Below, piece after piece: positions 796-63,272 of a stretch of DNA of 64,000 nt (positions within the stretch are counted from its first letter, which is position 1; the number at the start of each line of letters is the position of its first letter). Under the pieces are notes generated by a model. The model was not told where the DNA came from, searched no databases, and saw only the letters and a list, made by a program, of their open reading frames with translations. This stretch comes from an uncultured Actinomycetota bacterium (GTDB lineage: Bacteria > Actinomycetota > Actinomycetes > Prado026). Location of the stretch: assembly GCA_963849365.1 (NCBI GenBank), contig CAWKHA010000004.1:1570051-1634050 (forward strand), read 5' to 3'. Both the position numbers and the translations under genes were made by a program.

Positions 796-891
796 TCACA
801 TTGCGCGTGCGCTCCCGACCGAGGGACTCGATACGGCCGGATCGATGTCGTTGCCGCGTCGGACAGCGTGGCTCCTTGACATCAAAATGCA

Positions 892-908
892 ATATCGTGA
901 TGAGACAT
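892..908. promoter_or_regulatory. weak RTATCG-N5-CGATAY box upstream of racemase-like gene 1
   Basis: ATATCG tgatg AGACAT, with TTGACA at 876-881 just upstream. The right half-site is poor. Confidence 0.35.
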
Positions 909-1045
909 TGCCGGTGATCTCGATCTGGATGGCGATCGATGCAACAGCGCGAGTTGCGGTCGGGTGCCCCGCATGCCGGTGTAGTGGGACTCGGCTGCAT
1001 GGGCATGTCTTTCGGCTATCCGTGTCTGCGTGGAGAGGACTCAGC

Positions 1046-2782: not shown

Positions 2783-3772
2783 TCAACCGCTCGCCACCCT
2801 GTCGTACGCCTCGAGCGCGGTGCGCAGAACGCGCGTCCAGTACGCCCTCTCCGAGCCGGCTGCAAGGTGTGGCGTGATGATCACGTTGTCACCGGCGAGG
2901 GCAAGCAGAGGGTGCTCCTTCGGCAGCGGCTCATAGTGGAAGACGTCCAACGCAGCGCCGGCGATCTGGCCCTCGCGCAGCGCCGCGACGAGCGCGTCCT
3001 CGTCGAGGATCCGACCGCGCGAGGTGTTTATCAGGAACGCTGAGTTCTTCACCATCGCAAATTCCCGGGCGCCGAACTGGCCTTCGTTGCCGCCGGGCCC
3101 TTCCTGCAGGCGATGGTGCAGCGTGATGAAATCGCATTCCCGAATGAGGTCGTCGAACTCGCGCCACTCGAGATGCAGTCGCTCTTCATCGGCTTCCGGC
3201 AGTCGGTGGCGCTGCGTGTACCGCAGCCGCGCACCGAACGGCGCCAGCATCTGGGCCACCGATGAGCCGATCGCACCGACGCCAATGATGCCGACGACCT
3301 TCTCGAACAGGAACCCGGAACTCTGCAGCTGCGTCCAGTTGTAGACGTACCGCGCCTGGGTGGTCAGCGCCGGTTCGTCGCGGCCCGGTGCCCAAGGGTG
3401 CTCGGTTGCCGTCCGTGCGAGGGCGAGCAGGTTCCGCGCCAGCGCGAGGATCATCGTGACGGCGTATTCCGCGACAACATGGTGTCCCTGCTGCCTCTCT
3501 GTGGACAACCGGACAATCTGGACGTCGTCGAGGCCGCTCGGGATGTCATCGGTGTTCGTGGTGGCGATCAGCCGAAGGCTCGGGCGGGCCCGCCTGACCA
3601 CGCCGGCCTCGAGCGGTCTGTCGACCGCGAGGATCACCGCTGCGTCATCCGGCTCGTCGGCGAGCACCCACCCCTCGGGCAGCGCGGCCTGCAAGGCGGC
3701 AACCGCCTCCGTTGCGAACGTACTTTCCGCGAGCAGCGGATGGAGCCGGTGAGCTGCGTCCGAGTCCTGCAC
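2783..3772 (-). CDS. D-isomer-specific 2-hydroxyacid dehydrogenase family (paralog 1)
   Basis: VGIIGVGAIGSSVA Rossmann motif, FLINTSRGRILDEDALVAALREGQIAGAALDVFHYEPLP and ITPHLAAGS. GTG 3772 follows AGGTGG and gives 329 aa, matching paralog 11711-12697. The ORF-track start at 3820 overlaps an operator box. Confidence 0.85.
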   Translation of the reverse strand: MQDSDAAHRLHPLLAESTFATEAVAALQAALPEGWVLADEPDDAAVILAVDRPLEAGVVRRARPSLRLIATTNTDDIPSGLDDVQIVRLSTERQQGHHVVAEYAVTMILALARNLLALARTATEHPWAPGRDEPALTTQARYVYNWTQLQSSGFLFEKVVGIIGVGAIGSSVAQMLAPFGARLRYTQRHRLPEADEERLHLEWREFDDLIRECDFITLHHRLQEGPGGNEGQFGAREFAMVKNSAFLINTSRGRILDEDALVAALREGQIAGAALDVFHYEPLPKEHPLLALAGDNVIITPHLAAGSERAYWTRVLRTALEAYDRVASG

Positions 3773-3811: not shown

Positions 3812-3858
3812 ATGTCGCAAACCGATATTGCCTGAATGCTAGTATCGGAATACGATAC
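3812..3858. promoter_or_regulatory. two RTATCG-N5-CGATAY boxes (one perfect) upstream of 2-hydroxyacid dehydrogenase 1
   Basis: ATGTCG caaac CGATAT (3812-3828) and perfect palindrome GTATCG gaata CGATAC (3842-3858). Confidence 0.65.
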
Positions 3859-5249: not shown

Positions 5250-5312
5250 TCCCGCGCAGCAACCGCATCAGCCTCCACCGAACCGGTGGCGCTGGCGAGA
5301 GGAGCCGGAGAA

Positions 5313-6493
5313 TTGGAGACCTGGATTCTTGCCGGTCAGTCCGGCATGGAAGGTCGGGGGTTGCTCCACGACCCGCGGGCGCTACTGGAGCCGGTCGACG
5401 GGGTCCGTGCGCTGAACAGCGCCGGCGAGTGGGAGGTCGCAGCCGACCCCCTGTACCGTATGTGGGAGAGTCTCACTCCCATTCATCGCGTCCTGTCGCG
5501 GCGAAGCTCGAACGAAATGAACCGCACTTGCAGCATCTCACCGATGCTGAGCTGGCCCGCCGCGATCGACTTCACGGCAAGGCCGGCGCGGGACTCAGCG
5601 TCGCATTTGGACAAGCGCTCGCCCAGGCCAAGGGCACGCAGATCGGGCTCATTCCGGCTGCCCACGGGGGCACTTCGCTGGAAGAGTGGCGCGTAGGGCC
5701 GGTGCCCGACGGCGGACAAACCTTGTTCGGGAGTCTGTGGGAGCGAGTCTTGCGGGCTCGCGCGACCGCCCCGGCGAAGCTCGCTGGAATTCTCTGGTAC
5801 CAGGGCGAGAGCGATGGCACCCTGGAGGACTCCGCGTCCTATGCGCAGCAGTTCGACACCTGGGTGAACGACGTCCGGGAGCTGCTCGAAGAGACCCGGC
5901 TTCCGGTGTACATCGTTCAACTCAGCCGAATGGTCGCCACGGAGCTCGGCCCTGGCGTCCCACCCGAAGGCTGGGTTCCGGCCGGCTGGGACGTCGTCCG
6001 GGAGGCGCAGCGCACCGCACCGGATCGATTGGCTGACGTCGGGGTGGTTTCTGCCATCGACCTGGGCCTCGTCGACGATTGCCACGTCGACAGCGCAGGA
6101 TTGGTTCGGCTCGGACGTCGGCTGGCTCGCCTCGCCCTAAGCGACGGGCGAGCGCCTCGCGTCGTACGAGTGGAGCGCGGACCCGATGCCGGCAACGGTC
6201 TGCACCAGGTCCGTGTCGTCTGCGATGAGGTCGACGGTGGTTGGCGACCGGCTAGCCATATCACCGGATTCGAAATCCGTGACGCCTCGAATGAGCGGCA
6301 TCGAGAGGTTGACGTCGTCGACGCCCATCCCGATTGGGATGACCCGCGGAACATCAATATCGTTCTCAACAGCGAAGGTGACTTCGATCCACAGATGAGA
6401 GTTGGCTACGGTCTGGGCTTCAACCCTCCCTGTACGGCTGTCGACGCTGCGGATATGGCGATGCCTGCTTTTGCCCCGCAGGCGGTCGCCTGA
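5313..6493 (+). pseudogene. SGNH/DUF303 sialate-O-acetylesterase-like hydrolase, frameshifted
   Basis: The N-terminal ETWILAGQSGMEGRG (GQSNM-type catalytic Ser motif) is in the frame of ORF 5286-5696. The downstream IGLIPAAHGGTSLEEW and ILWYQGESD blocks are in the frame of ORF 5066-6493. The frames must switch between about 5490 and 5575. Confidence 0.6.
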
Positions 6494-6542
6494 AGTAGGA
6501 GGAGATCGACCGCCGACGCGACGGACCGCGCTCCTTACCCGT

Positions 6543-7976
6543 CTATGAGCGAGCTTCATCTGTGGCAGGGCGCAACATGGCACGGCCGGAGCGGCCGACT
6601 GTCGACGGCACGTGTGCGGCGACTGCGTCAACTCCGAGGCGCCCTGTGAAGACCATCCCGATGGTGAGCACCACCGTCATCGTCAGATTCATGATCAGGA
6701 AGGTCGTGTCAAAGCTGAGCGCTCCACGTGCAGCCGTGGCCACGAGCACGCCACCCAACCCGGTCAGCACAGCTGTCCCTGCCGCTCCCGCCAACTGAGT
6801 TGCGGCGGAATTGAAGCCGCGCTCTTCCTCAGTGGTCCGCCTCTGCACCAGCACGTTGACGGTCGTCATGGTGAGCCCGGCTCCAACACTTGCCAGACAC
6901 GAGGCAGCCAGCGCCCACCAGCCGGAAACCGTCGGAAAGGCGACGGCCGCGGCTACGAGAGTCGCGAGCGCGGTAAGGCCGAAGCCGAGCCTGACGAGCC
7001 GAATCCGGTAGACCTCATCGTCGCCCCGGGTCGGTCGGCTCTGCAGCCAGGATCCGACGGACCAGGCCGTCCCACCTACGGCAAGTGGCAGCCCGGCAAG
7101 CATTGGGCTGTACCCGTGCTGGACGGTCAGCATCAGCGGAATAACGGACTCGAGCCCCATCACGACGCCGGCGAGGATACCGCGAAGACCGATCGGCGCG
7201 GCTACGCCTCGGCGCAGCTGGAACGTCCCGCTGGGCAGCACGCCGCGCAGCCCCCAGGCGAGCAGCAGTCCAGAGCAGGTGGCGACGCCGACGAGGACCG
7301 GCCACGCCGGCGGGTGCTGGCCTACGTGCTCCAGAACCGCAATGGCAGCCGCGACGCCGAGCGCGAACGCCAGGTTCTTGCGACGCATGGCCGGCGCCGC
7401 GGGCCGGTGCAGCGCGCGCAGCACTGGGACCATCAGCAGCATAGCCACGACGGCGAGCGGAATGAGTCCGAAGAACGTCCATCGCCAGCTCGTGTACTGG
7501 GCGATGACCCCGGCGACCAACGGCCCCATCAGGGAGGGGACGACGAAGGTATATCCGATGACCGACTGGACCCTGGGCGCCTTCGCGGCCGAGAACATTC
7601 TGCCGATCACGACGTACACCGAGGTGAGCAGCATCCCGGTGCCGCAACCTTGGAGCAAGCGACCCACGATCACCCAGCTCATCGTCGGCGCCGCACCAAT
7701 CGCTAGCGAGCTCAATGGGAAGAGCAACATGCCTGCTATCAGCGGCGATCGAGGCCCGCGGGTGTCGCTGTACTGCGCCGCCAGAACAAGTCCGACGATC
7801 TTCGCCGTGACGAACCCGGTATAGACCCAGCCAAACGACCCGATACCGCCAAGGTCCTTAGCCGCCGTCGGCAGCACTGCGCCGGCCGACGTCTCCTGAA
7901 AGGCCATCAGCGTGAAGAGAACGAACACCCCGACCAACGTCGCCCGTTCACGCGCGTCAAACGAGGTAGATGGCAT
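6543..7976 (-). CDS. MFS transporter (paralog of 38597-39991)
   Basis: Many hydrophobic spans. MPSTSFDARERATLVGVFVLFTLMAFQETSAGAVLPTAAKDLG... aligns with the MFS at 38597-39991. ATG 7976 follows AGGAAG. Confidence 0.85.
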   Translation of the reverse strand: MPSTSFDARERATLVGVFVLFTLMAFQETSAGAVLPTAAKDLGGIGSFGWVYTGFVTAKIVGLVLAAQYSDTRGPRSPLIAGMLLFPLSSLAIGAAPTMSWVIVGRLLQGCGTGMLLTSVYVVIGRMFSAAKAPRVQSVIGYTFVVPSLMGPLVAGVIAQYTSWRWTFFGLIPLAVVAMLLMVPVLRALHRPAAPAMRRKNLAFALGVAAAIAVLEHVGQHPPAWPVLVGVATCSGLLLAWGLRGVLPSGTFQLRRGVAAPIGLRGILAGVVMGLESVIPLMLTVQHGYSPMLAGLPLAVGGTAWSVGSWLQSRPTRGDDEVYRIRLVRLGFGLTALATLVAAAVAFPTVSGWWALAASCLASVGAGLTMTTVNVLVQRRTTEEERGFNSAATQLAGAAGTAVLTGLGGVLVATAARGALSFDTTFLIMNLTMTVVLTIGMVFTGRLGVDAVAAHVPSTVGRSGRAMLRPATDEARS

Positions 7977-8001: not shown

Positions 8002-8031
8002 GTATCAGATACCGATATCAGCAAAGAATAC
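8002..8031. promoter_or_regulatory. two overlapping RTATCG-N5-CGATAY boxes in the MFS / cupin divergent region
   Basis: GTATCA gatac CGATAT (8002-8018) and ATATCA gcaaa GAATAC (8015-8031). Confidence 0.65.
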
Positions 8032-8160
8032 GAGTGCACGAGGGTTATCTCCACCGTGGACCACATCGTGGAAGCACGACGACCATGTGACCGTGCTGCA
8101 GCGTCTGTGCCGAACGCGGTCGTCCACCGGCTGCCATGCGGAGGGTGCTGTCGGGTAGCG

Positions 8161-8177
8161 ATATCGTGCTAGGATAC
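8161..8177. promoter_or_regulatory. RTATCG-N5-CGATAY box overlapping the extended -10 of the cupin gene
   Basis: ATATCG tgcta GGATAC. TGcTAGGAT extended -10 (8167-8175), with ATG 8182 seven nt after the -10, a leaderless layout. Confidence 0.65.
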
Positions 8178-8181
8178 AGCG

Positions 8182-8535
8182 ATGACAGATGTCGAGCGGC
8201 TGTTGCCTGCACGCTTGCGCGCGCTGCTGCCTCGACGTGGAGACGCCGTCCCCGCGTACTGGCTGAGAGCGCCCGGCTGCGATGTGTTGTTCGTGGTGGC
8301 GCCGGCGGGGAGCAGCCTGGCGCCACACGTTCACGACACTGACAACGCCACTGTCGTGGTGTCCGGCGAGACGGTCTTGACGACGGCCCGGGGGGAGGAG
8401 CGATACAGCCAGGGACAGTGGTACGAGACGCGCGCAAACGAGCAGCACAGCGTGCGGTTCGAGGTCCCCACGCTCCAGGTCGAGCTGCGCTTTTCCGGAT
8501 CGACGAACCGCGACGGCTCACGTCCGCACGACTAA
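8182..8535 (+). CDS. cupin-fold protein
   Basis: 117 aa with SSLAPHVHDTDNATVVVSGE...W...EQHSV, a cupin-like metal motif spacing. Convergent 4-nt overlap with the next gene. Confidence 0.65.
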   Translation: MTDVERLLPARLRALLPRRGDAVPAYWLRAPGCDVLFVVAPAGSSLAPHVHDTDNATVVVSGETVLTTARGEERYSQGQWYETRANEQHSVRFEVPTLQVELRFSGSTNRDGSRPHD

Positions 8536-9626
8536 GCGCGAGCTCCTTGTCCCTCGTCCTGGCGTTCGTCGATGTCCAGCCAGGACGAGCCTGTCGCGCT
8601 GCAGGTGCCGCCACACGGGCAGTCCGGGATGTCTTCGCCGTAGTTCGCGGTGAAGTACTTGTGTGCGAGCCGTAGCGCCTCGTCCTCTGTGATGCCCCAG
8701 GACGACCAGTTGGCACGGGACGCCTCCATCACCTTGACCGGGTCGCCCATCCGCCAGTACTCGGAGAACCGGTCCGGCTTCCCGACCCCCAGCGCCTGCG
8801 CCAGGACGCTGATGTAGTGCTTGATCGGCAGCCGGTCGTTCGCGAACTTGCTCAGCTCGCGCGTGCACGAGTGATACAGCGTGACAAGAGTGTTCGCACC
8901 GGACGCAGCCAGGTACTGCTCGAGCTTCTGCTGCGCCGCCAGGTACTCGGCTGTTCCCATGGCCGCGATGACCAGACCCTGGTTGTCGCAGATGTCGAGC
9001 ACCTCAGTCTCCGCGTAGTCCACGTACTCGACGCCCGGAACCCGCTTTAGCAGCTCCGCGGCGATCTTCGGGTGCCGGTCGCGCACCGCGTGCTCCCCGA
9101 GATGTCCGTGCACGACTGCCTTCACATCGACCTCAGACTTCCAAGGCACCTGGTCACCAAGAGCATCGATGCGTTCGACGAGGAAGGCGGCCAGCGGTTC
9201 GCTCGTGAACTCGATGGTCTTGCTCGCACCGAACACGTCGCTGAACTGCATCTCACAAGCTGAGCACCACTGAATGGTTCGCTTGGGCTGGTACGCGGCC
9301 ATCCGCTCGACCGACGTGTTGATGATCTGACCGGCCATGTCGGGGAAGCCGAGGCCGCTGTAGACCTTCCCGCAGCACGTCCGCTGCCCGGCGATGGCAG
9401 AGAAGTCGACGCCGAGCGCCTCCATGACGGCCACCGCCTCACGCTGGAGGTGCGGCGTCTGCCGGACGTTGCAGCCGAAGTTGAGCAGGATCTCGACGGG
9501 CCGTGCGGGAACTTCGCCTGCCTCGGACCAGACCGCCTCCTCCCGCGACACCTGCATGTGCTCGCGCTCCATCATCGCCCGGTAGAACTCGGGGATGGTG
9601 AAGTCACTGAGTCTGGGTCCGGCCAT
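8532..9626 (-). CDS. CCG-motif cysteine-rich protein, HdrB/GlpC/LutA-like (paralog 1 of 3)
   Basis: NFGCNVRQTPHL...TCCGKVYSG...WCSACEMQF fits C-Xn-CCG-Xm-C-X2-C. The second half has a degenerate repeat. C-terminal tail is DCPCGGTC. ATG 9626 follows GGGAGGTG. Confidence 0.8.
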   Translation of the reverse strand: MAGPRLSDFTIPEFYRAMMEREHMQVSREEAVWSEAGEVPARPVEILLNFGCNVRQTPHLQREAVAVMEALGVDFSAIAGQRTCCGKVYSGLGFPDMAGQIINTSVERMAAYQPKRTIQWCSACEMQFSDVFGASKTIEFTSEPLAAFLVERIDALGDQVPWKSEVDVKAVVHGHLGEHAVRDRHPKIAAELLKRVPGVEYVDYAETEVLDICDNQGLVIAAMGTAEYLAAQQKLEQYLAASGANTLVTLYHSCTRELSKFANDRLPIKHYISVLAQALGVGKPDRFSEYWRMGDPVKVMEASRANWSSWGITEDEALRLAHKYFTANYGEDIPDCPCGGTCSATGSSWLDIDERQDEGQGARA

Positions 9627-9669
9627 CGCGGTCACCTCCCGCATGTCATCTCTGTCGACTGGTAACGTG

Positions 9670-9699
9670 ATAACGCTAGCAGATATCGGATGCCGACCT
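9670..9699. promoter_or_regulatory. RTATCG-N5-CGATAY boxes upstream of CCG gene 1
   Basis: ATAACG ctagc AGATAT (9670-9686) and ATATCG gatgc CGACCT (9683-9699, weak right half). Confidence 0.5.
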
Positions 9700-11599: not shown

Positions 11600-11651
11600 C
11601 AGCACTCCTACCTGCCTGTCATGATCGCGCAACTACTGAAATCGCGACCCA

Positions 11652-11668
11652 ATATCATCGTACGCTAC
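11652..11668. promoter_or_regulatory. RTATCG-N5-CGATAY box upstream of CCG gene 2
   Basis: ATATCA tcgta CGCTAC, between the 2-hydroxyacid dehydrogenase 2 stop and the CCG2 start. Confidence 0.5.
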
Positions 11669-51414: not shown

Positions 51415-51438
51415 GAGGCGACATACTAACATCTAGCG

Positions 51439-52305: not shown

Positions 52306-53124
52306 GTGACCGAGAATCGCCGAAGCAACGGTCCCGCAGCAGCGATCAGGGTTGTCGTGGCAGGGCCGAACGGGAAGATGGGCAGCGTCATGATGTCCGG
52401 GCTCCCGGAGCAGCCCGGCATTGAAGTCACCGGTGGGTTGACACGCGACGATCCGAACGCCGCGCAGCTGCTCGCAGGCGCCGATGTGCTCGTGGACTTC
52501 ACGATCGCCGAGGCCGCGATCCCCCTGATGCTCGCCGCGATCGACGCCGGCGTCCGGCCGGTGAGCGGAACGTCGGGGCTGGGCGAGCAGGCCCTGGACG
52601 AGGTCGATCGCGCGGCGCGGGCCAGGGGCCTACCGGCTGTCTGGGCATCGCAGTTCACCCCGGGCGGCGCGCTGATGATGCACTTCTGCCGGCTGGCCGC
52701 GCGCTACCTCGACGCGGCAGTCGTGACCGAGTGCCACCACGCCACAAAGGCTGACGCGCCGTCAGGAACCGCCTGGGAGCTGGCCAAGCAGATCCGGATC
52801 GCGCACGGCGCCGATCTCGTCGACTACCCGCCGCAGACCCAGCCGGTCGCGTCGGTGATGGGCGGTGACGAGGGTGGAGTGCGCATCCACAGCATGCGCC
52901 TGCCGGGAGCGCTCGGCTGGAACGAGGTGACGTTCGCGGGCCCGCATGAGACGCTCTCGATCCGGCAGACAGACGGCGACCGCGTGGGCTTTGTCCCGTT
53001 CGTCGCGCGCGCCGTTCACGAAGTCATGAACACAGATCGCGTCGGGCTCATCCGTGGGTTCGGCTCCGTCATCGGCCTGGAAGTCGAGCCAACAGACGCC
53101 ACGCCGGTCCCGGCGTCAGCATAA
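52306..53124 (+). CDS. 4-hydroxy-tetrahydrodipicolinate reductase (DapB) family imine reductase
   Basis: IRVVVAGPNGKMG and the signature ECHHATKADAPSGTA. Confidence 0.8.
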   Translation: MTENRRSNGPAAAIRVVVAGPNGKMGSVMMSGLPEQPGIEVTGGLTRDDPNAAQLLAGADVLVDFTIAEAAIPLMLAAIDAGVRPVSGTSGLGEQALDEVDRAARARGLPAVWASQFTPGGALMMHFCRLAARYLDAAVVTECHHATKADAPSGTAWELAKQIRIAHGADLVDYPPQTQPVASVMGGDEGGVRIHSMRLPGALGWNEVTFAGPHETLSIRQTDGDRVGFVPFVARAVHEVMNTDRVGLIRGFGSVIGLEVEPTDATPVPASA

Positions 53125-53134
53125 GGAGTCCGAC

Positions 53135-54112
53135 GTGGAGGCAGTCAGGGTCCACCAGCACGGCGGCCCAGAGGTGATGCAGCTCGAGACGCTGCCGACG
53201 CCGGAACCGGGACCCGGCCAGGCGCTCGTCCAGCTCACGACGTCGGGTGTGAACTACTTCGACCTGCGGCAGCGCAGTGGCGACAAGCCATGCGTCCTAC
53301 CGATCACGCTCGGGAACGAAGGCGTCGGCGCGGTCACGGCACTCGGCCCTGGCGCCGTAGCATCCGGTGTCGAGGTCGGGACCCGAGTGGCCTGGCAGAT
53401 GCAGCAAGGCACGTACGCGACCCATGCGGTGGCGCCGGCTGACGCGCTGGTCCCACTGCCGGACGCCATCGACGACCGCACCGCGGCGGCAGTCATGCTG
53501 CAGGGACTGACGGCCCAGGCGATGGCCTGCTCGGCATACGAGATCCAGGCGGGCGAGACCGCTCTGGTTCACGCAGCCGCCGGTGGTGTCGGCGGCCTCC
53601 TGACCCAGATCGCGACGGCTCGCGGCGCCCGGGTGATCGGAACCGTCTCGACGTCGGACAAGGTGGAACCTGCCCGGAAGGCTGGCGCCACCGACGTCAT
53701 CGTGCGCAGTGAGCAGGACGTCGCGGCGGAGGCGCGGTCACTCACCGACGGCCGGGGCGTGGACGTCGTGTTCGACGGCATCGGTAAGGCCACGTTCGAC
53801 GAGAGCCTGCACGCGCTGCGCCCGCACGGCTTCCTGATCCTGTACGGCGTCGCCAGTGGCGCCGTACCGCCGGTGGACACCCACACGTTGGCCCACGACG
53901 GTGGCCGGTACCTCACGCACGCCATGGTCGGGCAGTTCGTGACGGACCGCGATCAGCTGCTGCGCCGCTCGTCCGAGCTGTTCAACTGGATCATCGGCGG
54001 ACAGCTCGAGGTCAACATCGCGCAGACCTACCCGCTGGCAGACGCGGCCCAGGCCCACGCGGCCATGGGAAGCGGGAGGACAGTCGGCAAGCTGCTGCTC
54101 TCCATCGCATGA
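53135..54112 (+). CDS. MDR-family quinone oxidoreductase
   Basis: LGNEGVGAV and VHAAAGGVGGLLTQIA. GTG 53135 follows AAGGAG, 10 nt after the dapB-like stop. Confidence 0.8.
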   Translation: MEAVRVHQHGGPEVMQLETLPTPEPGPGQALVQLTTSGVNYFDLRQRSGDKPCVLPITLGNEGVGAVTALGPGAVASGVEVGTRVAWQMQQGTYATHAVAPADALVPLPDAIDDRTAAAVMLQGLTAQAMACSAYEIQAGETALVHAAAGGVGGLLTQIATARGARVIGTVSTSDKVEPARKAGATDVIVRSEQDVAAEARSLTDGRGVDVVFDGIGKATFDESLHALRPHGFLILYGVASGAVPPVDTHTLAHDGGRYLTHAMVGQFVTDRDQLLRRSSELFNWIIGGQLEVNIAQTYPLADAAQAHAAMGSGRTVGKLLLSIA

Positions 54113-55461: not shown

Positions 55462-55478
55462 GTATCGGCTGCCGATAC
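55462..55478. promoter_or_regulatory. perfect RTATCG-N5-CGATAY box between ferredoxin reductase and ferredoxin genes
   Basis: GTATCG gctgc CGATAC, both half-sites perfect. Confidence 0.7.
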
Positions 55479-55809: not shown

Positions 55810-56256
55810 GTGACTGACGAGATCAGAGTCAGGACGGAAGACAACGAGCTCACGCTCGAGGAGATGTCCGCCGCCCTTCCTGACACGGCGGGAATCATGG
55901 AGAAGGTCGGCCACAGCTGGTGGCATGTCGCCTACGCCGCCCGCGGCGGCAACTGGGGCCTTGCGGAGTACTACGTCAAGCGGATGACCAAGCTGGAGAA
56001 CACCCTCAAGGTGCTCCGTCCCAAGCACCGCGAGCGCCTGGAGCGCTTCCAGGCGGAGGCGTTGCCCGCGGTCCGGGCGGCGATCGACGCGAAAGACCTG
56101 GATCGGTTCGAAGCGGCCTTCGCCGCGGCGACGGACATGGCGAATGATCTCCACGCGGAGTCGGGCTACCCGTACATCAAGTGGGTGCTGCCTGAGCAGG
56201 CGCCGCAGGGGCTGGTGCTCGATCTGGTGGCAGAGCCGAGTCCTGCCGACGCCTAG
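55810..56256 (+). CDS. conserved-looking hypothetical protein (148 aa), no family recognised
   Basis: High third-position GC, helical composition, WWHVAYAARGGNWGLAEYYVKRM. Immediately downstream of the ferredoxin gene. Confidence 0.5.
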   Translation: MTDEIRVRTEDNELTLEEMSAALPDTAGIMEKVGHSWWHVAYAARGGNWGLAEYYVKRMTKLENTLKVLRPKHRERLERFQAEALPAVRAAIDAKDLDRFEAAFAAATDMANDLHAESGYPYIKWVLPEQAPQGLVLDLVAEPSPADA

Positions 56257-56290: not shown

Positions 56291-56710
56291 TCAGCGCCGT
56301 GACGACGCTGACGCGGTGGACGAGCGTGACGGCTTCCGGCTCGAATCGCCGTCGCTGACCTCCTGGACCAGGTCGATGACCTTGGCCCTGGCCTCGTCCA
56401 ACGCTCGCTGGCCCAGCGGAGTGATTCCGTAGTACTTGCGGATCTTGCCCCCGACGACGCGGTCCTGGCGAACCAGGAACTGGGCCCCCTCCAGGTTGTG
56501 CAGCAATGGGTAGAGCGTGCCGGGCGAGAGGCGGTAGCCGTGCTTCTCGAGCTCTTCGGTGAGGCCGACGCCATAGACCGGCCCCATGCTCGCGTGATAG
56601 AGCACGTGGATCTTGACGAAACCGAGCAGGAGGTCGCGGAAGATCTTCGAGTGCTCCTCCAGTGACCTGTGGACCGCCGCCGGATCGGTCGCAGACGTGC
56701 GCGTTGCCAT
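56291..56710 (-). CDS. PadR-family transcriptional regulator
   Basis: LLGFVKIHVLYHAS...GVGLTEELEKHGYRLSPGTLYPLLHNLEGAQFL...YYGITPLG winged-helix pattern. ATG 56737 is an alternative start. Confidence 0.8.
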   Translation of the reverse strand: MATRTSATDPAAVHRSLEEHSKIFRDLLLGFVKIHVLYHASMGPVYGVGLTEELEKHGYRLSPGTLYPLLHNLEGAQFLVRQDRVVGGKIRKYYGITPLGQRALDEARAKVIDLVQEVSDGDSSRKPSRSSTASASSRR

Positions 56711-56751
56711 AGGACGGCCAACCCTTCGTCTCTTCATCGAATCGTAAACCG

Positions 56752-56768
56752 TGATCGGTGATCGATAT
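56752..56768. promoter_or_regulatory. RTATCG-N5-CGATAY box proximal to the PadR gene
   Basis: TGATCG gtgat CGATAT. Confidence 0.5.
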
Positions 56769-56830: not shown

Positions 56831-56847
56831 ATATCGACATCCGACAC
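56831..56847. promoter_or_regulatory. RTATCG-N5-CGATAY box proximal to TPP enzyme gene 2
   Basis: ATATCG acatc CGACAC. GATATCGACATCCGAC is shared with 12731. Confidence 0.55.
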
Positions 56848-56861
56848 CGTAATCCAATATC

Positions 56862-58556
56862 ATGGCTTCCGTGGATCAGACGCTCGCGCACGACGCAGCC
56901 TTGGGACGAGATCTCCTCTTCCGGTACCTGGTCGACCTCGACATCCCGTACATCTTCGGCAACCCGGGGACGACCGAGCTTCCGCTGATCGACGGCTGCA
57001 ACGACTACGCCTCGGTCGACTACGTGCTGGCGCTGCACGAGGACATCGCGGTTGCCCAGGCCATTGGCTATGCCCGCGGCTCGGGCAAGATCGGTGTTGT
57101 CAACCTGCATGTGACGCCCGGGGTGGCCCATGGGCTGGGCAACATCTACAACGCCTTCCGCGCGCGGGTTCCGCTGCTCATCGTGGCCGGCCAGCACCAC
57201 AGCGGTCTCAATGTCTACGACCCGATCCTCACCGCGGACCTGGGCGGCCTGATGCGCCCGTTCACCAAGTGGTCGTACGAAGTCTCCTCGCTCCCCGACC
57301 TGCCTATCGCGCTGCAACGGGCGTTCAAGGAGTTGACGACGCCGCCGTACGGCCCGGTGTTCCTGTCCATCGCCACCGACCTGTTCCTGGCCGAGTACCC
57401 CGACCCACCGGGCCCCAGGTTGAGCAAGATCGGGCCCACCCGGGCGCTCGAGAGCGCGGTCGAGCACGCGGCAACTCTGCTTGCGGAAGCTGCCAATCCG
57501 CTCATCCTCGCCGGCGACGGCGTGGGCTTGAACGGCGCCTGGGAGGACATGGTCGCCCTGGCCGAGAGCCTGGACGCGGTCGTGCTGACCGAGGGGTACG
57601 CCACGTTGTGGAACTTCCCATCGAACCACCGGCTCTTTGCTGGCCCGATGCCGAACCTTGCGACCGAGATGCGCAAGCAGCTCGACGACGTCGACGTCCT
57701 CCTCACCTGCGGAGTGACCTGCCAGGCCCCGGTGTCCCGCTACGACGGCGGCGGCCCGCTCGTGCCGTGGCGGGTGCGCACGATCACCGTCGACGACAGC
57801 CCTTGGGAGATCGGCAAGAACGAGCCGGTCGAGGTGGGTCTGCTCGGCGATGTGAAGGCGAACCTGGCGGCGCTGGCCGCGGCGGTCCGGCGCAGATCCG
57901 TCGTCGGGGCACAGCGCGAGCATCGCCGAGCGGCCGCCGAGGCGCGATGTAGGCATCGGGTCGACCAGTGGGCGGATCGGGCCGCGCGTGCCCTGGAGGC
58001 GAACCGGCTGTCCGCGGACCTGGTCGCAGCCGAGCTGCGTGACCGGCTTCCTCATGACGCCATTTTCGTTGACGAGTCAATCTCCAACCGACCGTCGTTC
58101 GTGAACATCCTGCAGTTCCGCGACCCCCTGTCCTACTTCAACGTCAACGGCCTGTCCCTCGGCTACTCGCCAGCCGCAGCAGTGGGCATCCACCAGGCGC
58201 TGCCGCATCGGAAGGTCGTCAACGTGGTGGGCGACGGGTCCCTCATGTACTACCCGCAGGCCTTGTGGAATGCGGCCGCCGATGAGGCGCCGATCCTGTT
58301 CGTGGTGCTCAAGAACGGGACCTACCGCGTCCTGAGCCTGATCATCGACCGCATGGGCGGTCCCTGGGGCGCCGAGGGGCTGCCGGTGCCCGGTCTGAGC
58401 CTGGACGCGTCGACGATCGACTTCGTCGCGCTGGCGGGCGCGCAGGGTGTGCCGGGCGAACGAGCAGCCGACCCCGCGCAGCTGCGTGCCGCGCTCGAGA
58501 AGGGGCTGACCTCCGAGGGGCCGTACCTGGTCGAGGTCGTGCTGGACCAGCGGTAG
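56862..58556 (+). CDS. thiamine-diphosphate enzyme, benzoylformate decarboxylase / acetolactate synthase-like
   Basis: IFGNPGTTELP, HEDIAVAQAIGYA and TPP motif VVGDGSLMYYPQALWNAAADEAPILFVVLKN. Confidence 0.85.
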   Translation: MASVDQTLAHDAALGRDLLFRYLVDLDIPYIFGNPGTTELPLIDGCNDYASVDYVLALHEDIAVAQAIGYARGSGKIGVVNLHVTPGVAHGLGNIYNAFRARVPLLIVAGQHHSGLNVYDPILTADLGGLMRPFTKWSYEVSSLPDLPIALQRAFKELTTPPYGPVFLSIATDLFLAEYPDPPGPRLSKIGPTRALESAVEHAATLLAEAANPLILAGDGVGLNGAWEDMVALAESLDAVVLTEGYATLWNFPSNHRLFAGPMPNLATEMRKQLDDVDVLLTCGVTCQAPVSRYDGGGPLVPWRVRTITVDDSPWEIGKNEPVEVGLLGDVKANLAALAAAVRRRSVVGAQREHRRAAAEARCRHRVDQWADRAARALEANRLSADLVAAELRDRLPHDAIFVDESISNRPSFVNILQFRDPLSYFNVNGLSLGYSPAAAVGIHQALPHRKVVNVVGDGSLMYYPQALWNAAADEAPILFVVLKNGTYRVLSLIIDRMGGPWGAEGLPVPGLSLDASTIDFVALAGAQGVPGERAADPAQLRAALEKGLTSEGPYLVEVVLDQR

Positions 58557-58646: not shown

Positions 58647-58685
58647 TTGACAGGCACCCCACCCATCGTTACCGTGTGCCGATAT
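58647..58685 (+). promoter_or_regulatory. sigma70-like promoter with overlapping RTATCG-N5-CGATAY box, ABC importer operon
   Basis: TTGACA (58647-52), 17 nt, TACCGT (58670-75). Box TTACCG tgtgc CGATAT (58669-85) covers the -10 and the start site. Confidence 0.6.
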
Positions 58686-58805: not shown

Positions 58806-59786
58806 GTGCTGAGGTACGTGATACGGCGGTCAGCCTGGGCGGCGTTCACGCTCTGGGCAATCTCGCTCGTCTCCTTCGTGGTGATCCAGCTGCCGCCGGG
58901 CGACTTCGCGAGCGAGTACTACGCGCGGCTCGCCGAGAGCGGCATCTCGCCGCCCGCCCTGAACCAGATCCGTAAGAACCTGGGTCTGGACGAGCCGGCG
59001 TACCTGCAGTACCTGCACTGGGTGACCGGCATGGTGCACGGCGACTTCGGCCTCTCATTGAGCATGCAGGAGCCGGTCTCGACGATCATCGCCGGCGCCG
59101 CCGGCTACACCGTGCTGATCGCCGTGCTCTCGGTCGGCGTCACGTGGTTCCTCGCGGTGCCGCTCGGGATCTACTCCGCGGTCCGCCGGTACTCGTTCTT
59201 CGACTACGTGATCACCACCATCGGCTTCATCGGCCTGGGCGTGCCGTCGTTCCTGCTGGCGCTGGCGCTGATGTACTTCGCGTTCCAGTGGTTCGGCATC
59301 AACCTCGGCGGTCTGTTCTCGCCGGAGTACGTGACCGCGCCGTGGAGCATCGGCAAGCTGATCAACATGGTCGAGCACCTCATCATCCCGGCGATCGTGC
59401 TCGGGATCGGCGGCATCGCGTATCTGCACCGGGTCATGCGCGCCAACCTGCTGGACGAGCTCGGCAAGCCGTACGTGGTGACCGCGCAGGCAAAGGGACT
59501 GTCGCGGTGGCGGGTCATCAGGAAGTATCCGGTTCGGGTGGCGCTGAACCCCTTTGCCAGCTCGATCGGCCTGCTCCTCCGTGAGGCCATGTCGGACACC
59601 ATCATCATCTCCGTCGTGCTGGCGCTGCCCACGCTGGGTCCGATCCTGCTGGTCTCCCTGCGCGCTCAGGACATGCTGCTGGCCGGTGCGATCATCATGC
59701 TGCTGGGAGTCATCACCGTCGTGGGCACGTTCATCTCGGACATGGTGCTGATGGCTCTCGACCCGCGGATCCGCCATGCTGGATGA
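58806..59786 (+). CDS. ABC importer permease (DppB/OppB type)
   Basis: MLRYVIRRSAWAAFTLWAISLVSFVVIQLPPGD is a typical N-terminus. Multiple TM spans. Confidence 0.85.
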   Translation: MLRYVIRRSAWAAFTLWAISLVSFVVIQLPPGDFASEYYARLAESGISPPALNQIRKNLGLDEPAYLQYLHWVTGMVHGDFGLSLSMQEPVSTIIAGAAGYTVLIAVLSVGVTWFLAVPLGIYSAVRRYSFFDYVITTIGFIGLGVPSFLLALALMYFAFQWFGINLGGLFSPEYVTAPWSIGKLINMVEHLIIPAIVLGIGGIAYLHRVMRANLLDELGKPYVVTAQAKGLSRWRVIRKYPVRVALNPFASSIGLLLREAMSDTIIISVVLALPTLGPILLVSLRAQDMLLAGAIIMLLGVITVVGTFISDMVLMALDPRIRHAG

Positions 59787-60993
59787 CGTCAGGAAGCACC
59801 GACTGCCATTCCGGCTGCACCGCGGGGGACGCAGTGGTTCGGCCGTAGAGCAGGTGCCGCCGTCGGCCGCGGGACCCGCCACCCTGCTCACCGAGCAGCG
59901 ACTCGCGGTCGCCAGTCAGCGACAGCTGGTCTGGTGGCGGTTCCGCCGGCACAAGATGGCCATGGTCAGTGCGGCGATCCTGATCCTCATGTACATGGTC
60001 GTGATCTTCGCCGACTTCCTCGCCACGCATGATCCGCAAGACTCCAGCGCTGCGCGCATCTTCATGCCCCCCCAGCGGGTCCAGCTCTTCGACGGCCTCT
60101 CGTTCTCACCCCACATCCACCCGGTCCAAGGTCACCGTGACCCGGTCACCCTCCAGCCGGTGTACACCGTCAACGACTCGACGAACATTCCCGTGCACTT
60201 CTTCGTGCACGGCTACTCGTACAAGCTCTTCGGCCTGTTCACCACCGACATCCACCTGATGGGCGTGGACGGTCAGGTGAACGGGCAGCCGGCGTCGAAT
60301 TCGCTGGCTCTGGTGGGCGCGGACGAGGAGGGTCGCGACGTGTACTCGCGGCTGATGGTCGCCACCCGGACCTCGATGAGCATCGGGTTGATCGGCGTCT
60401 CGATCAGTCTCGTGCTCGGCTGCCTGCTCGGCGGCATCTCCGGCTACTACGGCGGCCTCATCGACACGCTCGTGCAGCGACTCATCGAGGTCATCCGGGC
60501 GATCCCCACGATCCCACTCTGGATGGGGCTTGCCGCAGCCATGCCGCGGGACTGGAGCGTGATCAAGGTCTACTTCTGCATCACGCTGATCATCTCGTTC
60601 ATCGGGTGGACCGGGCTGGCCAGAGAAGTGCGAGGCCGATTCCTCCAAGTGCGCAACGAGGACTTCGTGACAGCGGCCGAGCTCGCCGGCACCCGCCCGC
60701 GACGGGTGATCACCACGCACATGCTGCCGCTGTTCACCAGCCACATCATCGCTACGACCACCTTGGCGCTTCCCGGCATGATCGTCGCGGAGACGTCACT
60801 GAGCTTCCTGGGGCTCGGGCTGCGTCCCCCGGCGGTCTCCTGGGGTGTGATGCTCCAGGAAGCCCAGAACATCCAGGCCGTCGCTCTGACGCCCTGGCTG
60901 CTCGCGCCGGTCGTGCCCGTGGTCGTGTCGTGCCTGGCCTTCAATTTCGTCGGAGACGGACTTCGAGATGCCGCTGACCCGTACGGAAACTGA
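59776..60993 (+). CDS. ABC importer permease (DppC/OppC type) with long periplasmic loop
   Basis: LVGADEEGRDVYSRLM, IGLIGVSISLVLG and IRAIPTIPLWMGLAAAMP. Overlaps the upstream stop. Confidence 0.85.
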   Translation: MLDDVRKHRLPFRLHRGGRSGSAVEQVPPSAAGPATLLTEQRLAVASQRQLVWWRFRRHKMAMVSAAILILMYMVVIFADFLATHDPQDSSAARIFMPPQRVQLFDGLSFSPHIHPVQGHRDPVTLQPVYTVNDSTNIPVHFFVHGYSYKLFGLFTTDIHLMGVDGQVNGQPASNSLALVGADEEGRDVYSRLMVATRTSMSIGLIGVSISLVLGCLLGGISGYYGGLIDTLVQRLIEVIRAIPTIPLWMGLAAAMPRDWSVIKVYFCITLIISFIGWTGLAREVRGRFLQVRNEDFVTAAELAGTRPRRVITTHMLPLFTSHIIATTTLALPGMIVAETSLSFLGLGLRPPAVSWGVMLQEAQNIQAVALTPWLLAPVVPVVVSCLAFNFVGDGLRDAADPYGN

Positions 60994-63226
60994 GTTGGCG
61001 CCGGCTGATCCCGCGCCGATGCCCGGATCGGACATCCTGCTGTCCGTCCGCGACCTGGCGACGCACTTCCAGACCCCCGAAGGCATCGTCAGGGCCGTCG
61101 ACGGCGTGTCGTTCGACATCCCGACCGGCAAGGTCGTTGGTCTGGTCGGCGAGACGGGCTGCGGCAAGAGCGTCGCGGCCCGCTCACTCCTGCGGATCGT
61201 GGAGCAGCCCGGGAAGATCGTCGGCGGCCAGATCCTGCTGCGACAGGACGACCAGTGGTGCGACCTCGTCGAGCTCGACCCGTTCGGCGACGAGATACGG
61301 CGGGTACGAGGTGGCGAGATCGGCCTGGTGTTCCAGGAGCCGGGGACCTCCTTCAGCCCAGTGCACACCATCGGCAACCAGCTGCTCGAGGCCGTGCAGC
61401 TGCACTCCGACCTGTCCGGCGATGCCGCCCGCCAGCGTGGCGTCGAGCTGCTCACCATGGTCGGGGTGCCCCGACCAGACGGGTACCTCGACTCGTACTC
61501 CTGGCAGATGTCCGGCGGCCTGCGGCAGCGCGCGATGATCGCCATGGCGCTGGCCGGGACGCCGCGCCTGCTCATCGCGGACGAACCGACCACCGCCCTG
61601 GACGTGATCACCCAGGCGCAGATCCTGCGCACCATGCGCGACCTGCAGAAGAGCGCCGGCCTCAGCCTGCTGATGATCACGCATGACCTCGGCGTGATCG
61701 CCCAGATGGCGGACGAGGTCGTCGTGATGTACCTGGGCCGGGCGGTCGAGCGCGGACCGGTCGACCAGATCTTCCACGACCCGCACCACCCCTACACCAA
61801 AGCCCTGCTGCAATCGGTGCCCAGTGCCCAGCGTGGCAAACGTTCGCGGTTGACGACCATCTCCGGAACGGTGCCGCACCCGCTGCACCGGCCGGATGGG
61901 TGCGCGTTCCATCCGCGGTGCCAGTCGCGGATCGGGGAGATCTGCGAGAACTCCCAGCCCAGCGTGCACACCCTCGGTCAGCGCCAGGAGTACGAGTGTC
62001 ACCTGGTCGAGCAGTCGGCGGACACGGCGCAGCTGGGGAGTGCTGCGACCGCCGTGGCGCTGGCCGCGCCGCCCGTGGATTCGGCCGCCGGGAGGGTCCT
62101 CCTGACGATCGAGCCGGTCGAACCGGCTCCGAGGGCTTCGGCTCAGCTTGCACCTGACCCGAAGCTGCCGGTGCTCGAGGTGGTCGAGCTGTACAAGACC
62201 TTCACCATCCAAGGGCGCTCGCTGGGCCGCGCCAAGGGCCGTATCCAAGCCGTCCAGGACGTGACCTTCTCACTGGCGCCGGGGGAGACCTTGGCACTGG
62301 TCGGTGAGAGCGGCTCGGGCAAGACCACGACGGCGCGTTGCGTGATGCGCGACCACACCCCCGACGGCGGGCAGATCATCTTCCGCCCCAACGACTCGGT
62401 CGAGGTGGATCTTGCGAAGCTGGGCAAGAGGCAGCTGCGTTCGGTCCGGCGCGACCTCCAGATGGTGTTCCAGGATCCGTACTCCTCGCTCAACCCCCGC
62501 ATGACGGTGGTCGAGATCATCAGCGAGCCGCTTCTCGTCAACCACGTCGGTGACAAGCGGTCGCGCAAGGAACGGGTCGGCGAGCTGCTCGACCTGGTGG
62601 GGCTGCGCCGGGAGTACATGCACCGGTATCCGCATGCCTTCAGCGGCGGTCAACGGCAACGGATCGGCATCGCACGAGCACTGGCGATGAACCCCCGGCT
62701 GGTCGTGGCGGACGAGCCGGTCTCCGCTCTTGACGTGTCGGTTCAGGCACAGACCCTCAACCTTCTCCTCGACCTGCAGACTCGGCTGGGGCTCACGTAC
62801 CTGTTCGTGTCGCACGATCTGAGCGTCGTGCGCCACATCAGTGATCGGATCGCGGTCATGTACGCCGGTCAGATCGTCGAGATGGGTGAGCGAGACCAGG
62901 TGCTCATGACGCCACGGCATCCCTACACCTCAGCGCTGCTGGGTGCCGTGCTCAGGCCCGATCCCCGGCAGCGCGCCACGCTCGATCCGCCGCCCGGGAG
63001 CGTGGCCAACCTGGCGGACCTGCCCACCGGCTGCTACTTCCACCCGCGCTGCCCGTTCGCGATCGACAAGTGCAGGACCCAAGCCCCGGCGCTCGAGGCC
63101 ACCCCCGACGGCCACCAGGCCCGATGCCACCGGGCGTCCGAGCTGCGGCTTCCGGGCATGGACGATGCGCAGGCGCAACCACCGGGTGGCCCGGCGCACC
63201 CCCAGGCCAACGGGTCATTGACATGA
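60968..63226 (+). CDS. fused double ATPase of peptide/opine-type ABC importer (DppD-DppF fusion)
   Basis: Two Walker A motifs (GETGCGKS, GESGSGKT) and two signature motifs (MSGGLRQR, FSGGQRQR) in one 752-aa ORF. Confidence 0.85.
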   Translation: MPLTRTETELAPADPAPMPGSDILLSVRDLATHFQTPEGIVRAVDGVSFDIPTGKVVGLVGETGCGKSVAARSLLRIVEQPGKIVGGQILLRQDDQWCDLVELDPFGDEIRRVRGGEIGLVFQEPGTSFSPVHTIGNQLLEAVQLHSDLSGDAARQRGVELLTMVGVPRPDGYLDSYSWQMSGGLRQRAMIAMALAGTPRLLIADEPTTALDVITQAQILRTMRDLQKSAGLSLLMITHDLGVIAQMADEVVVMYLGRAVERGPVDQIFHDPHHPYTKALLQSVPSAQRGKRSRLTTISGTVPHPLHRPDGCAFHPRCQSRIGEICENSQPSVHTLGQRQEYECHLVEQSADTAQLGSAATAVALAAPPVDSAAGRVLLTIEPVEPAPRASAQLAPDPKLPVLEVVELYKTFTIQGRSLGRAKGRIQAVQDVTFSLAPGETLALVGESGSGKTTTARCVMRDHTPDGGQIIFRPNDSVEVDLAKLGKRQLRSVRRDLQMVFQDPYSSLNPRMTVVEIISEPLLVNHVGDKRSRKERVGELLDLVGLRREYMHRYPHAFSGGQRQRIGIARALAMNPRLVVADEPVSALDVSVQAQTLNLLLDLQTRLGLTYLFVSHDLSVVRHISDRIAVMYAGQIVEMGERDQVLMTPRHPYTSALLGAVLRPDPRQRATLDPPPGSVANLADLPTGCYFHPRCPFAIDKCRTQAPALEATPDGHQARCHRASELRLPGMDDAQAQPPGGPAHPQANGSLT

Positions 63227-63272
63227 GATGTATCGGTTATTACTATCGCCTAGCAATATCGGGGGTCGAGTT
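63218..63272 (+). promoter_or_regulatory. sigma70-like promoter with three tandem RTATCG-N5-CGATAY boxes, solute-binding-protein gene
   Basis: TTGACA (63218-23), 17 nt, TACTAT (63241-46). Boxes are GTATCG gttat TACTAT (63230), CTATCG cctag CAATAT (63243) and ATATCG ggggt CGAGTT (63256), in 13-bp register. Confidence 0.6.

Follow-up and report, generated by a model that had tools for sequence, protein, structure and literature searches.

The stretch analysed here, a 64,000-nucleotide window of the genome of an uncultured Actinomycetota bacterium (contig CAWKHA010000004.1, positions 1,570,051 to 1,634,050), carries about 58 predicted genes and, upstream of most of its transcription units, an AT-rich palindromic box. 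The gene model was built from third-position G+C content and corrected by hand; its start codons are approximate, and it assigns 88.5% of the window to coding and 11.5% to non-coding DNA. The G+C content is 64–72% across the whole window. A Pfam scan identified a sole regulator among these genes, a PadR subfamily-2 protein of 139 amino acids encoded at 56291-56710 on the minus strand. We give a probability of about 0.85 to the reading that the boxes are the predicted operator of this protein.

A first-pass annotation, made by eye, had described a 17-bp inverted repeat in front of almost every transcription unit, and scanning by pattern and by matrix found a match or a half-box at each of the 30 start positions that it listed. 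Its degenerate pattern, RTAYCR-N5-BGATRY, gave 21 strand-matches at 13 loci of the window, against 0.19 expected from dinucleotide shuffles (maximum 2). The excess of GATATC outside genes that it had roughly estimated was also borne out (22 observed against 5.0 expected, 21 of the 22 outside predicted genes), and its two perfect copies were verified, GTATCGGAATACGATAC at 3842 and GTATCGGCTGCCGATAC at 55462. A weight matrix made from the exact pattern matches and applied with a threshold of at least 14 bits found 40 sites, 39 of them intergenic; when only the intergenic DNA was shuffled, which controls for its lower G+C content, 0.26 sites were expected (maximum 2). Matrix sites number about 5.3 for each kb of non-coding DNA and 0.018 for each kb of coding DNA, so that the comparison which the annotation had proposed shows a motif some 300 times denser in the former. 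Its placement before most transcription units was likewise upheld, sites being present in 11 of the 12 divergent gaps, in 13 of the 18 co-directional gaps of at least 60 bp and in none of the 12 convergent gaps. The gap at 20401-20797, apparently without a site, contains a missed RidA-like gene. Site centres lie mostly 10-130 bp from start codons. A motif that is over-represented and linked to promoters in this way fits what is expected of a transcription-factor operator and its regulon.

The 17-bp inverted repeat itself is real and over-represented, but it is not the basic unit. The conserved unit is an 8-bp palindrome, CGATATCG, present in two to four copies whose centres are exactly 13 bp apart, 13 bp being the sole offset found between neighbouring matrix matches (18 pairs). 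The 8-bp box was taken as the unit because the CG that flanks the 17-mer is conserved, the flanking bases being CG in about two-thirds of the strong sites. Such a palindrome could fold into a hairpin in 5' leaders, as RNA or as single-stranded DNA, and serve for instance as a protein-binding or stability element, given that perfect copies could form a 6-bp stem with a 5-nt loop and that many sites lie within 10-80 bp of start codons, some of them being probably transcribed. Pairing, however, is not under selection: among 240 arm pairs there were 75 one-sided changes and two compensatory ones, and 2 of the 40 sites are fully complementary. Half-sites that are kept as sequence, and not as pairing, indicate a protein-binding site in double-stranded DNA. 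In addition, the sites of divergent gaps serve both strands and a third box in a 13-bp phase would be meaningless for a hairpin, which makes this explanation highly improbable. Still harder to credit is that the copies have no regulatory role and are what is left of a dispersed repeat or mobile element of the REP or MITE kind. Two segments, 29991-30030 and 37177-37216, do share 40 bp with 90% identity as a result of duplication. That local duplication aside, no long repeat families link the sites, and since the information content is about zero outside the boxes and the flanking CG, the sites are not copies of a longer repeat. Their placement is also specific to promoters, with none in the 12 convergent gaps, and is kept at orthologues in other phyla.

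The regulator gene and the sites of the window are the following, with scores in bits (MFS, major facilitator superfamily; TPP, thiamine pyrophosphate; ACAD, acyl-CoA dehydrogenase; ALDH, aldehyde dehydrogenase):

56291-56710 (-): gene of the PadR subfamily-2 regulator, 139 amino acids, the proposed binder of the boxes.
399-415: weak isolated site, 12.5 bits, of doubtful function.
879-908: three-box operator upstream of the racemase-like A and class IV aminotransferase genes; 16.5 and 16.9 bits.
1795-1824: three-box operator between racemase-like A and the aminotransferase gene (1826-2779); 13.6 and 21.2 bits.
3812-3828 and 3842-3858: two 17-bp operators upstream of a 2-hydroxyacid dehydrogenase gene (2783-3772, -), 22.0 bits each, which may also serve a DapA-like gene at 4362.
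8002-8031: three-box operator upstream of an MFS gene (6543-7937, -); 22.9 and 15.0 bits.
8148-8177: three-box operator upstream of a cupin gene (8284-8535, +); 15.9 and 16.1 bits.
9670-9699: three-box operator upstream of a CCG-domain protein gene (8532-9644, -); 18.0 and 16.9 bits.
11639-11668: three-box operator upstream of a CCG-domain protein gene (10406-11632, -); 15.9 and 13.8 bits.
12719-12748: three-box operator in the divergent gap between a 2-hydroxyacid dehydrogenase gene (-) and a molybdopterin oxidoreductase gene (12977-15307, +); 19.7 and 13.3 bits.
15355-15384: three-box operator upstream of a zinc-type dehydrogenase gene (15427-16308); 11.1 and 20.0 bits.
16345-16374: three-box operator upstream of a metallophosphoesterase gene (16415-17092); 14.2 and 23.4 bits.
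17882-17898: operator immediately upstream of racemase-like B (17089-17880, -); 22.8 bits.
19341-19370: three-box operator in the divergent gap between a DAO flavoprotein gene (-) and the operon for a PALP dehydratase, RidA, an arginase-family protein and a TPP enzyme (+); 18.2 and 22.9 bits.
25311-25327: operator in the divergent gap between the OCD/mu-crystallin and AKR genes (-) and a DAO gene (25418, +); 14.9 bits.
26576-26592: operator upstream of the amidohydrolase and MFS genes (26627-29925); 18.6 bits.
29994-30023: three-box operator, possibly fossil, in a duplicated and deleted relic of the 37180 promoter; 14.1 and 13.8 bits; repeat families D3, D5 and D6.
31450-31466: operator in the divergent gap between a Glu/Leu dehydrogenase gene (-) and the SnoaL, DAO and CCG genes (+); 24.3 bits, the strongest in the window.
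32044-32060: site within the final codons of the SnoaL gene, with the DAO start (32089) following about 30 bp downstream; 15.1 bits.
37180-37209: three-box operator in the divergent gap between the racemase-like C and SolA genes (-) and a Rieske oxygenase gene (37262-38413, +); 14.1 and 12.1 bits.
40001-40017: operator upstream of an MFS transporter gene (38597-39940, -); 16.8 bits.
40211-40227: operator upstream of chrA (40379-41542, +); 23.4 bits.
44680-44709: three-box operator upstream of a DapD-like gene and two ACAD genes (-), with TATCGT as the predicted -10 hexamer.
46346-46375: three-box operator in the divergent gap between an ALDH gene (-) and an M20 peptidase gene (46455-47555, +); 13.7 and 15.8 bits.
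47564-47580: operator upstream of the 2-oxoacid dehydrogenase E1-alpha, E1-beta and E2 genes (47631-50886); 20.7 bits.
51426-51455: three-box operator in the divergent gap between a SnoaL gene (-) and an enoyl-CoA hydratase gene (+); 16.4 and 18.2 bits.
52272-52288: operator upstream of the DapB-like and quinone oxidoreductase genes (52357-54112); 19.0 bits.
55462-55478: perfect palindrome that takes up most of the 37 bp separating the divergent ferredoxin reductase gene (-) and the genes of a ferredoxin and of the 148-amino-acid protein hyp148 (55810-56256, +); 18.8 bits.
56739-56768: three-box operator of padR itself (putative autoregulation), 37-50 bp before its start codon; 14.0 and 14.5 bits, with an offset of 13 bp.
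56831-56860: three-box operator upstream of a TPP enzyme gene (56871-58556, +), overlapping the predicted -35 (TCGACA) and -10 (TATCAT) hexamers.
58669-58685: operator upstream of the Opp-type ABC permease genes (58806-63226); 15.4 bits.
63230-63272: four-box operator upstream of a family-5 solute-binding protein gene (63382 onward), overlapping the predicted -35 (TTGACA) and -10 (TACTAT) hexamers.

PadR proteins are winged-helix dimers, and those of subfamily 2 have a single domain of 11–13 kDa (PMC5728393). The protein of the window scored 61.8 bits against the Pfam family PF03551 (PadR; gathering cut-off 27) over residues 36-105, and no paralogue of it was found within the window by tblastn. 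Its size and its nearest solved structure agree with subfamily 2, in which a single domain of about 100-115 residues has one C-terminal dimerisation helix and lacks a separate domain at the C-terminus. That structure is Rv3488 of Mycobacterium tuberculosis (5ZHC, E=1.7e-25, residues 24-124); residues 24-124 are also the conserved core, the orthologues of low-GC genomes being 98-110 amino acids long. With 95.3 bits against a cut-off of 140, the protein falls outside the Rv3488 equivalog (NCBIfam NF053635). The search for homologues gave 511 at E<=1e-10; 80 loci were taken as the orthologue set among the matches listed, the Kribbella and Acidimicrobiales loci were fetched separately, and 88 sequences were aligned by residue. 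His35, His39 and His57 are invariant in all 88, and His71 is present in 82 of them (93%), in all the phyla sampled. The subfamily-invariant histidines are also present in Rv3488, which suggests a shared metal, oxyanion or redox-linked ligand site, and the cluster probably forms the site at which the whole subfamily binds its ligand or metal. The DNA-contact residues of Bacillus subtilis PadR are Tyr20, Tyr42 and Lys67 (PMC5728393); in the alignment Tyr46 (90%), Tyr67 (100%) and Lys89 (98%) are conserved, their placement being by helix and wing region and not by residue-by-residue alignment with the B. subtilis protein. The region upstream of the gene is divergent and has two three-box operators, one for the gene itself and the other for the neighbouring TPP-enzyme gene.

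The 80 orthologue loci come from Actinomycetota, Chloroflexota, Bacillota, Planctomycetota, Nitrospirota and Armatimonadota, plus one Bathyarchaeota metagenome-assembled genome (MAG). When the 6-mers of their upstream regions were counted without any matrix, the top ones were GATATC (61 of 80 regions, 6 expected) and ATATCG/CGATAT (73 of 80, 8 expected). ATATCG-N5-CGATAT with at most one mismatch was found in 67 of the 80 upstream regions versus 3 of 1438 control windows, and 64 of 75 autoregulatory operators have a third box at a distance of exactly 13 bp, versus 8.7% of the controls. Matches to the matrix of the window were located just upstream of the orthologue in most loci, and in most of the low-GC ones this was the sole match per 20 kb. 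Motif and regulator thus co-occur across genomes at a putative autoregulatory site, and the box is not specific to actinobacteria, as orthologues in at least six phyla carry it directly upstream. The Bathyarchaeota locus (L073, about 364-692) has a PadR orthologue and the operator ATATCGAATTTCGATAA on a contig binned as archaeal; a bacterial-type PadR there would be either an inter-domain transfer or a binning error.

The same boxes are found on small mobile modules, which have to bring along a regulator of their own. A padR-chrA pair of a Staphylococcus haemolyticus plasmid has a perfect 30-bp palindrome, AAATCGAATTACGATATCGTAATTCGATTT, and an Escherichia coli IncF plasmid with the arrangement sul1-chrA-padR-IS6100 (L081, NZ_CP019009.1, locus 1238-1270) has ATATCGAATTTCGTTATCGAATTTCG 68 bp upstream of chrA. 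Boxes are also present at a Bacillus cereus plasmid padR (309 bp)-chrA pair, whose PadR is 50% identical to that of the window over 96 residues. The chrA-padR module beside sul1 and IS6100 occurs in more than 1800 PLSDB plasmids, mostly of Klebsiella and Escherichia, and its regulation appears to be unstudied so far. By tblastn, chrA lies beside padR in 17 of the 80 orthologue loci. In other phyla the gene that follows the orthologue mostly encodes a transporter: comparison with Pfam at ten loci gave ChrA in three, MFS in two, an ABC ATPase in two (a UPF0014 gene then following in one of them), a PiT/PHO4 transporter in one and hemerythrin in one. The presence of the boxes at orthologues across phyla and on self-sufficient mobile modules led us to assign them, with high confidence, to the ChrI/Rv3488-like PadR subfamily as its putative operator.

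The first-pass annotation had proposed one DNA-binding protein for the whole stretch, and this gained support, the sole regulator gene of the window being that of PadR, whose orthologues carry the same box. That protein might instead be encoded outside the window, PadR being just a member of its regulon. The link between PadR and the boxes was drawn from sequence, the rest of the 2.03-Mb contig is unseen, and phased 8-bp palindromic boxes recall the arrays of ribbon-helix-helix repressors. But the box travels with padR over at least six phyla, it is found on modules of two or three genes that hold no other regulator, and its half-site spacing of 13 bp is near the 12 bp of the PadR operator ATGT-N8-ACAT. 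We consequently regard an outside protein as unlikely.

The position of the boxes in relation to promoters was best seen in low-GC loci. A sigma-A promoter could be recognised in 39 such loci, and in 30 of them the best 17-mer has its centre 4-27 bp downstream of where the -10 hexamer ends. The distances peak at +10 and +23, which differ by 13 bp, so that the three-box operator spans from the -10 hexamer to about +30. Boxes that start at the -10 region in these genomes indicate the position of a repressor. In the window a sigma-70 consensus scan gave three matches in 64 kb, all of them overlapping boxes. Nearly all transcription units of the 64 kb have the motif in front of them, -10-like hexamers (TATCGT, TATCAT, TACTAT) fall on some of the boxes and the comparison within the source genome is limited to cluster DNA, which would suit a generic promoter element such as a sigma-factor recognition sequence. 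Promoters are directional, whereas the boxes are phased palindromic repeats, and in low-GC loci they stand downstream of, and separate from, a normal -35/-10 pair. Elsewhere, moreover, the motif is restricted to the padR neighbourhood, with one site per 20 kb at most loci. Two high-G+C Actinomycetota loci, L003 and L005, have one or two sites per 20 kb, which indicates that the box is not a general feature of high-G+C promoters. A generic element is therefore very unlikely, and a PadR operator remains the preferred reading.

The genes served had been described as functionally unrelated, and this was not borne out: at the level of family matches (Pfam and NCBIfam), on which all the functions given here are based, they are mostly enzymes of amino- and imino-acid catabolism and transporters. 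The box-preceded genes encode three PRK07475 racemase-like paralogues and a class IV aminotransferase; five DAO-type flavoproteins; two intact CCG-domain proteins and a third one split by a frameshift; a GbcA-like Rieske oxygenase, a ferredoxin and a ferredoxin reductase; and a molybdopterin oxidoreductase. They also encode an arginase-family enzyme with a TPP enzyme like 5-guanidino-2-oxopentanoate decarboxylase, and a second TPP enzyme; an OCD protein like pyrroline-2-carboxylate reductase and an ALDH like alpha-ketoglutarate-semialdehyde dehydrogenase; DapA-, DapB- and DapD-like proteins and an M20 (DapE-like) enzyme; 2-oxoacid dehydrogenase E1-alpha, E1-beta and E2, two ACADs and an enoyl-CoA hydratase; and four MFS transporters, ChrA and an Opp-type importer. 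From this content we infer a regulon for the catabolism of arginine-derived, lysine/pipecolate/proline-type and N-methylated amino and imino acids, whose substrates may include peptide-derived D-amino acids and diaminopimelate.

The same genes, in other orders, surround padR orthologues in a Streptosporangiaceae MAG (L001), a Limnocylindria locus (L002), a Chloroflexi MAG (L004), an Actinomycetota MAG (L007), an Acidimicrobiales MAG (L083), the cultured Kribbella shirazensis (L085) and a JGI metagenome contig (L086). Orthologues share 60-65% identity with the genes of the window in the Kribbella and in the Acidimicrobiales loci alike. Boxes precede orthologues of at least 11 gene groups of the window, in two to five other genomes each, so that the footprinting that the annotation had called for found the motif kept upstream of orthologous genes. 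These groups are the M20 peptidase (L001, L083, L085), the operon of the TPP enzyme, the DapD-like protein and an ACAD (TPP gene in L001, L085, L086), E1-alpha, ChrA (L001, L006, L007, L085), OppB and the solute-binding protein (L001, L007, L083), the molybdoenzyme (L002, L004), ferredoxin/hyp148 (ferredoxin in L001, L086), SnoaL, the DapB-like protein (L086, with boxes at 13971/13984) and DAO. The placement of the operator at the E1-alpha/E1-beta/E2 genes is repeated in Kribbella at 18124/18137. The presence of boxes before catabolic orthologues in several Actinomycetota and Chloroflexota indicates that the enlarged regulon is conserved.

Taken together, the over-representation of the boxes, their promoter-proximal placement, their link to the PadR subfamily, their conservation upstream of orthologues and the absence of selection for pairing suggest the following mechanism. 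A PadR dimer would recognise two CGATATCG boxes with centres 13 bp apart, which make up the 17-bp ATATCG-N5-CGATAT, and most operators have a third and sometimes a fourth box in the same phase. Bound on or just downstream of the -10 region, PadR would block RNA polymerase, acting as a repressor rather than as an activator. A ligand would release it and thus de-repress padR itself and about 30 promoters, with some 50 genes, in the window. The ancestral unit of the subfamily would have been a self-regulated pair of padR and a transporter gene, often padR-chrA, and in some Actinomycetota and Chloroflexota of high G+C content the same operator would have been extended to a large number of catabolic genes. 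chrA would accordingly be the ancestral partner gene that, in the window, is part of the regulon with its own predicted operator.

Several points weigh against the assignment of the boxes to PadR or against parts of this mechanism. The assignment rests on comparative genomics, and the figures obtained with the matrix are partly circular because it was trained on the window itself; the degenerate-pattern count in the window and the k-mer result from other genomes are independent of it. The position of the repressor in the window is extrapolated from low-GC loci, as high-G+C promoters are mostly unpredictable. E1-alpha orthologues stand beside padR in L003 and L005 with no box of their own. Two PadR paralogues lie within 20 kb in L001 (3804-4115 and 10001-10351) and in L086 (10001-10378 and 19895-20368), so that the source contig (2.03 Mb) might encode, outside the window, a further paralogue that shares the sites with PadR or takes over some of them; in some lineages the sites could be divided between two related repressors. 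Finally, two dimers on three boxes must share the central one, and there a simple model of one dimer per palindrome fails. Possible ways out are overlapping dimers on different faces of the DNA, as in Fur and DtxR, alternative registers or limited spreading.

ChrI of B. cereus SJ1 is encoded by a 309-bp gene beside a chrA of about 1.19 kb and is co-transcribed with chrA1, both being induced by chromate according to reverse-transcription PCR; its operator was not defined, nor its function demonstrated, in that work (PMC2936356). It was compared here through the B. cereus plasmid padR-chrA, which stands in for the SJ1 sequence. Like ChrI, the regulator of the window is a small PadR protein. The chrA gene of the window has a strong box of its own, but padR and chrA are about 15 kb apart and not adjacent, and boxes precede some 30 promoters instead of one. 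Papers that cite the work on Rv3488 describe a 113-residue subfamily-II PadR implicated in countering toxic-metal stress; it is the best structure match and shares the invariant histidines, whereas the window protein scores below the cut-off of its equivalog. The chromate induction of ChrI and the toxic-metal role of Rv3488 point in the same direction as the histidine cluster, to a metal, oxyanion or redox ligand. The literature search found no published operator or regulon of Rv3488. It also returned no published definition of the operator or the regulon described here, most subscription journals lying outside it, so that this absence is no proof; literature matches to CGATATCG were primers.

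LmrR and PadR-type repressors bind ATGT-N8-ACAT operators with half-site centres 12 bp apart and are released by ligand. A dimer across two boxes would read ATAT-N9-ATAT, which is close to that geometry. The likeness extends to the winged-helix dimer, to self-regulation and to a palindrome with half-site centres about 12-13 bp apart (structural background in PMC5728393), but in the window the half-site is ATATCG and not ATGT, the spacing is one base longer and there is a phased third box; LmrR/PadR-type regulators control one or two operons and not dozens. AspA, an archaeal PadR subfamily-2 centromere-binding protein with DNA-bound structures (PMC5728393), is a precedent in the subfamily for something beyond ordinary local repression. 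Unlike the PadR proposed here, it serves DNA segregation and is not a transcription factor. Several AspA dimers spread from a palindrome, and such spreading could explain the phased boxes, although spreading beyond two to four boxes is not indicated here. KstR, of the TetR family, regulates the cholesterol-catabolic cluster of mycobacteria and Rhodococcus. The organisation would be alike, with one repressor and one palindromic operator before most units of a large actinobacterial catabolic cluster, kept across genera; protein family, operator sequence and substrate class differ, and the analogy is only functional.

A wider proposal, which we put forward as tentative, is that a ChrI/Rv3488-type PadR, whose histidine cluster suggests a metal, oxyanion or redox signal, was recruited as master repressor of a catabolic supercluster of at least 50 genes for D-/L-amino acids, cyclic imino acids and possibly cell-wall peptides. 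This supercluster, probably passed on by horizontal transfer, would be common to Actinomycetota and Chloroflexota of the soil, and its phased arrays, 13 bp in period, would accommodate dimers that overlap or stack cooperatively, a way of binding undescribed for PadR transcription factors.

What appears as new is a defined putative operator for a widespread subfamily, its phased multi-box architecture and a regulon whose growth to about 30 promoters is conserved. The common view of PadR subfamily-2 proteins is that of local regulators of one efflux or detoxification operon; if the reading is true, the window would be a clear case of a local repressor turned into a pathway-level regulator, with about 30 promoters in 64 kb, kept in several soil lineages. 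It also offers the ChrI-like family a concrete candidate operator, CGATATCG boxes at a spacing of 13 bp, which fits as well the chrA-padR module of the more than 1800 plasmids and makes its regulation directly testable. Furthermore, the regulon links poorly annotated genes (the PRK07475 paralogues, the CCG proteins, the DapD/DapB/M20/TPP set and hyp148) and gives a handle on what is degraded, and Kribbella shirazensis is a cultured organism in which this can be tested.

Three other readings of the locus were discarded. For an origin in a known plasmid, megablast of 25 kb against plasmids gave just two short matches of 72%. PLSDB contained no high-G+C plasmid with the enlarged regulon in which densities on and off the cluster could be compared. 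A haloarchaeal origin, with the boxes as TATA boxes, was rejected on the composition of the proteins, which are not unusually acidic (Asp 6.2%, Glu 5.3%). Sulfonate catabolism, with ChrA as sulfite/sulfate exporter and the TPP enzyme as Xsc, was rejected on NCBIfam scores for Xsc and CuyB far below the cut-offs.

Some minor features of the window were also recorded. The segment 29861-30030 is a chimeric relic that overlaps the end of an MFS gene: 29861-29991 copies the 3' end of the SolA-like gene (cf. 35177-35308) with 95-96% identity, and 29991-30030 copies the racemase-C/Rieske promoter and operator (37177-37216) with 90% identity. The whole resembles an operon that was duplicated and lost about 1.9 kb from its interior. 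Two overlapping open reading frames (ORFs) in different frames, 33415-33795 and 33779-34432, match residues 41-116 and 162-370 of the CCG paralogue at 10406-11632, and we read them as the putative third CCG paralogue, broken by a frameshift or deletion or by a sequencing error. An unannotated RidA/YjgF-like ORF at about 20388-20760 (+), between the PALP dehydratase and arginase-family genes, closes an apparent gap of 397 bp, so that 19426-23367 probably forms a single operon downstream of the operator at 19341. The segments 5250-6542 and 34433-35184 have no convincing gene, Pfam match or operator and may be degraded DNA. For hyp148 no relative was found in Pfam, NCBIfam or PDB; it is 68-72% identical in L007, L085 and L086, has in the window and in L086 a ferredoxin gene before it and a padR gene next to it, and would be an uncharacterised conserved member of the regulon. 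The three racemase-like paralogues (1094-1795, 17089-17880 and 36383-37168) belong to the PRK07475 'hypothetical' branch of the Asp/Glu racemase superfamily and have the motif LDTxFPRxxGDxxN in common; an operator stands before each of them, and L002 has two more in tandem.

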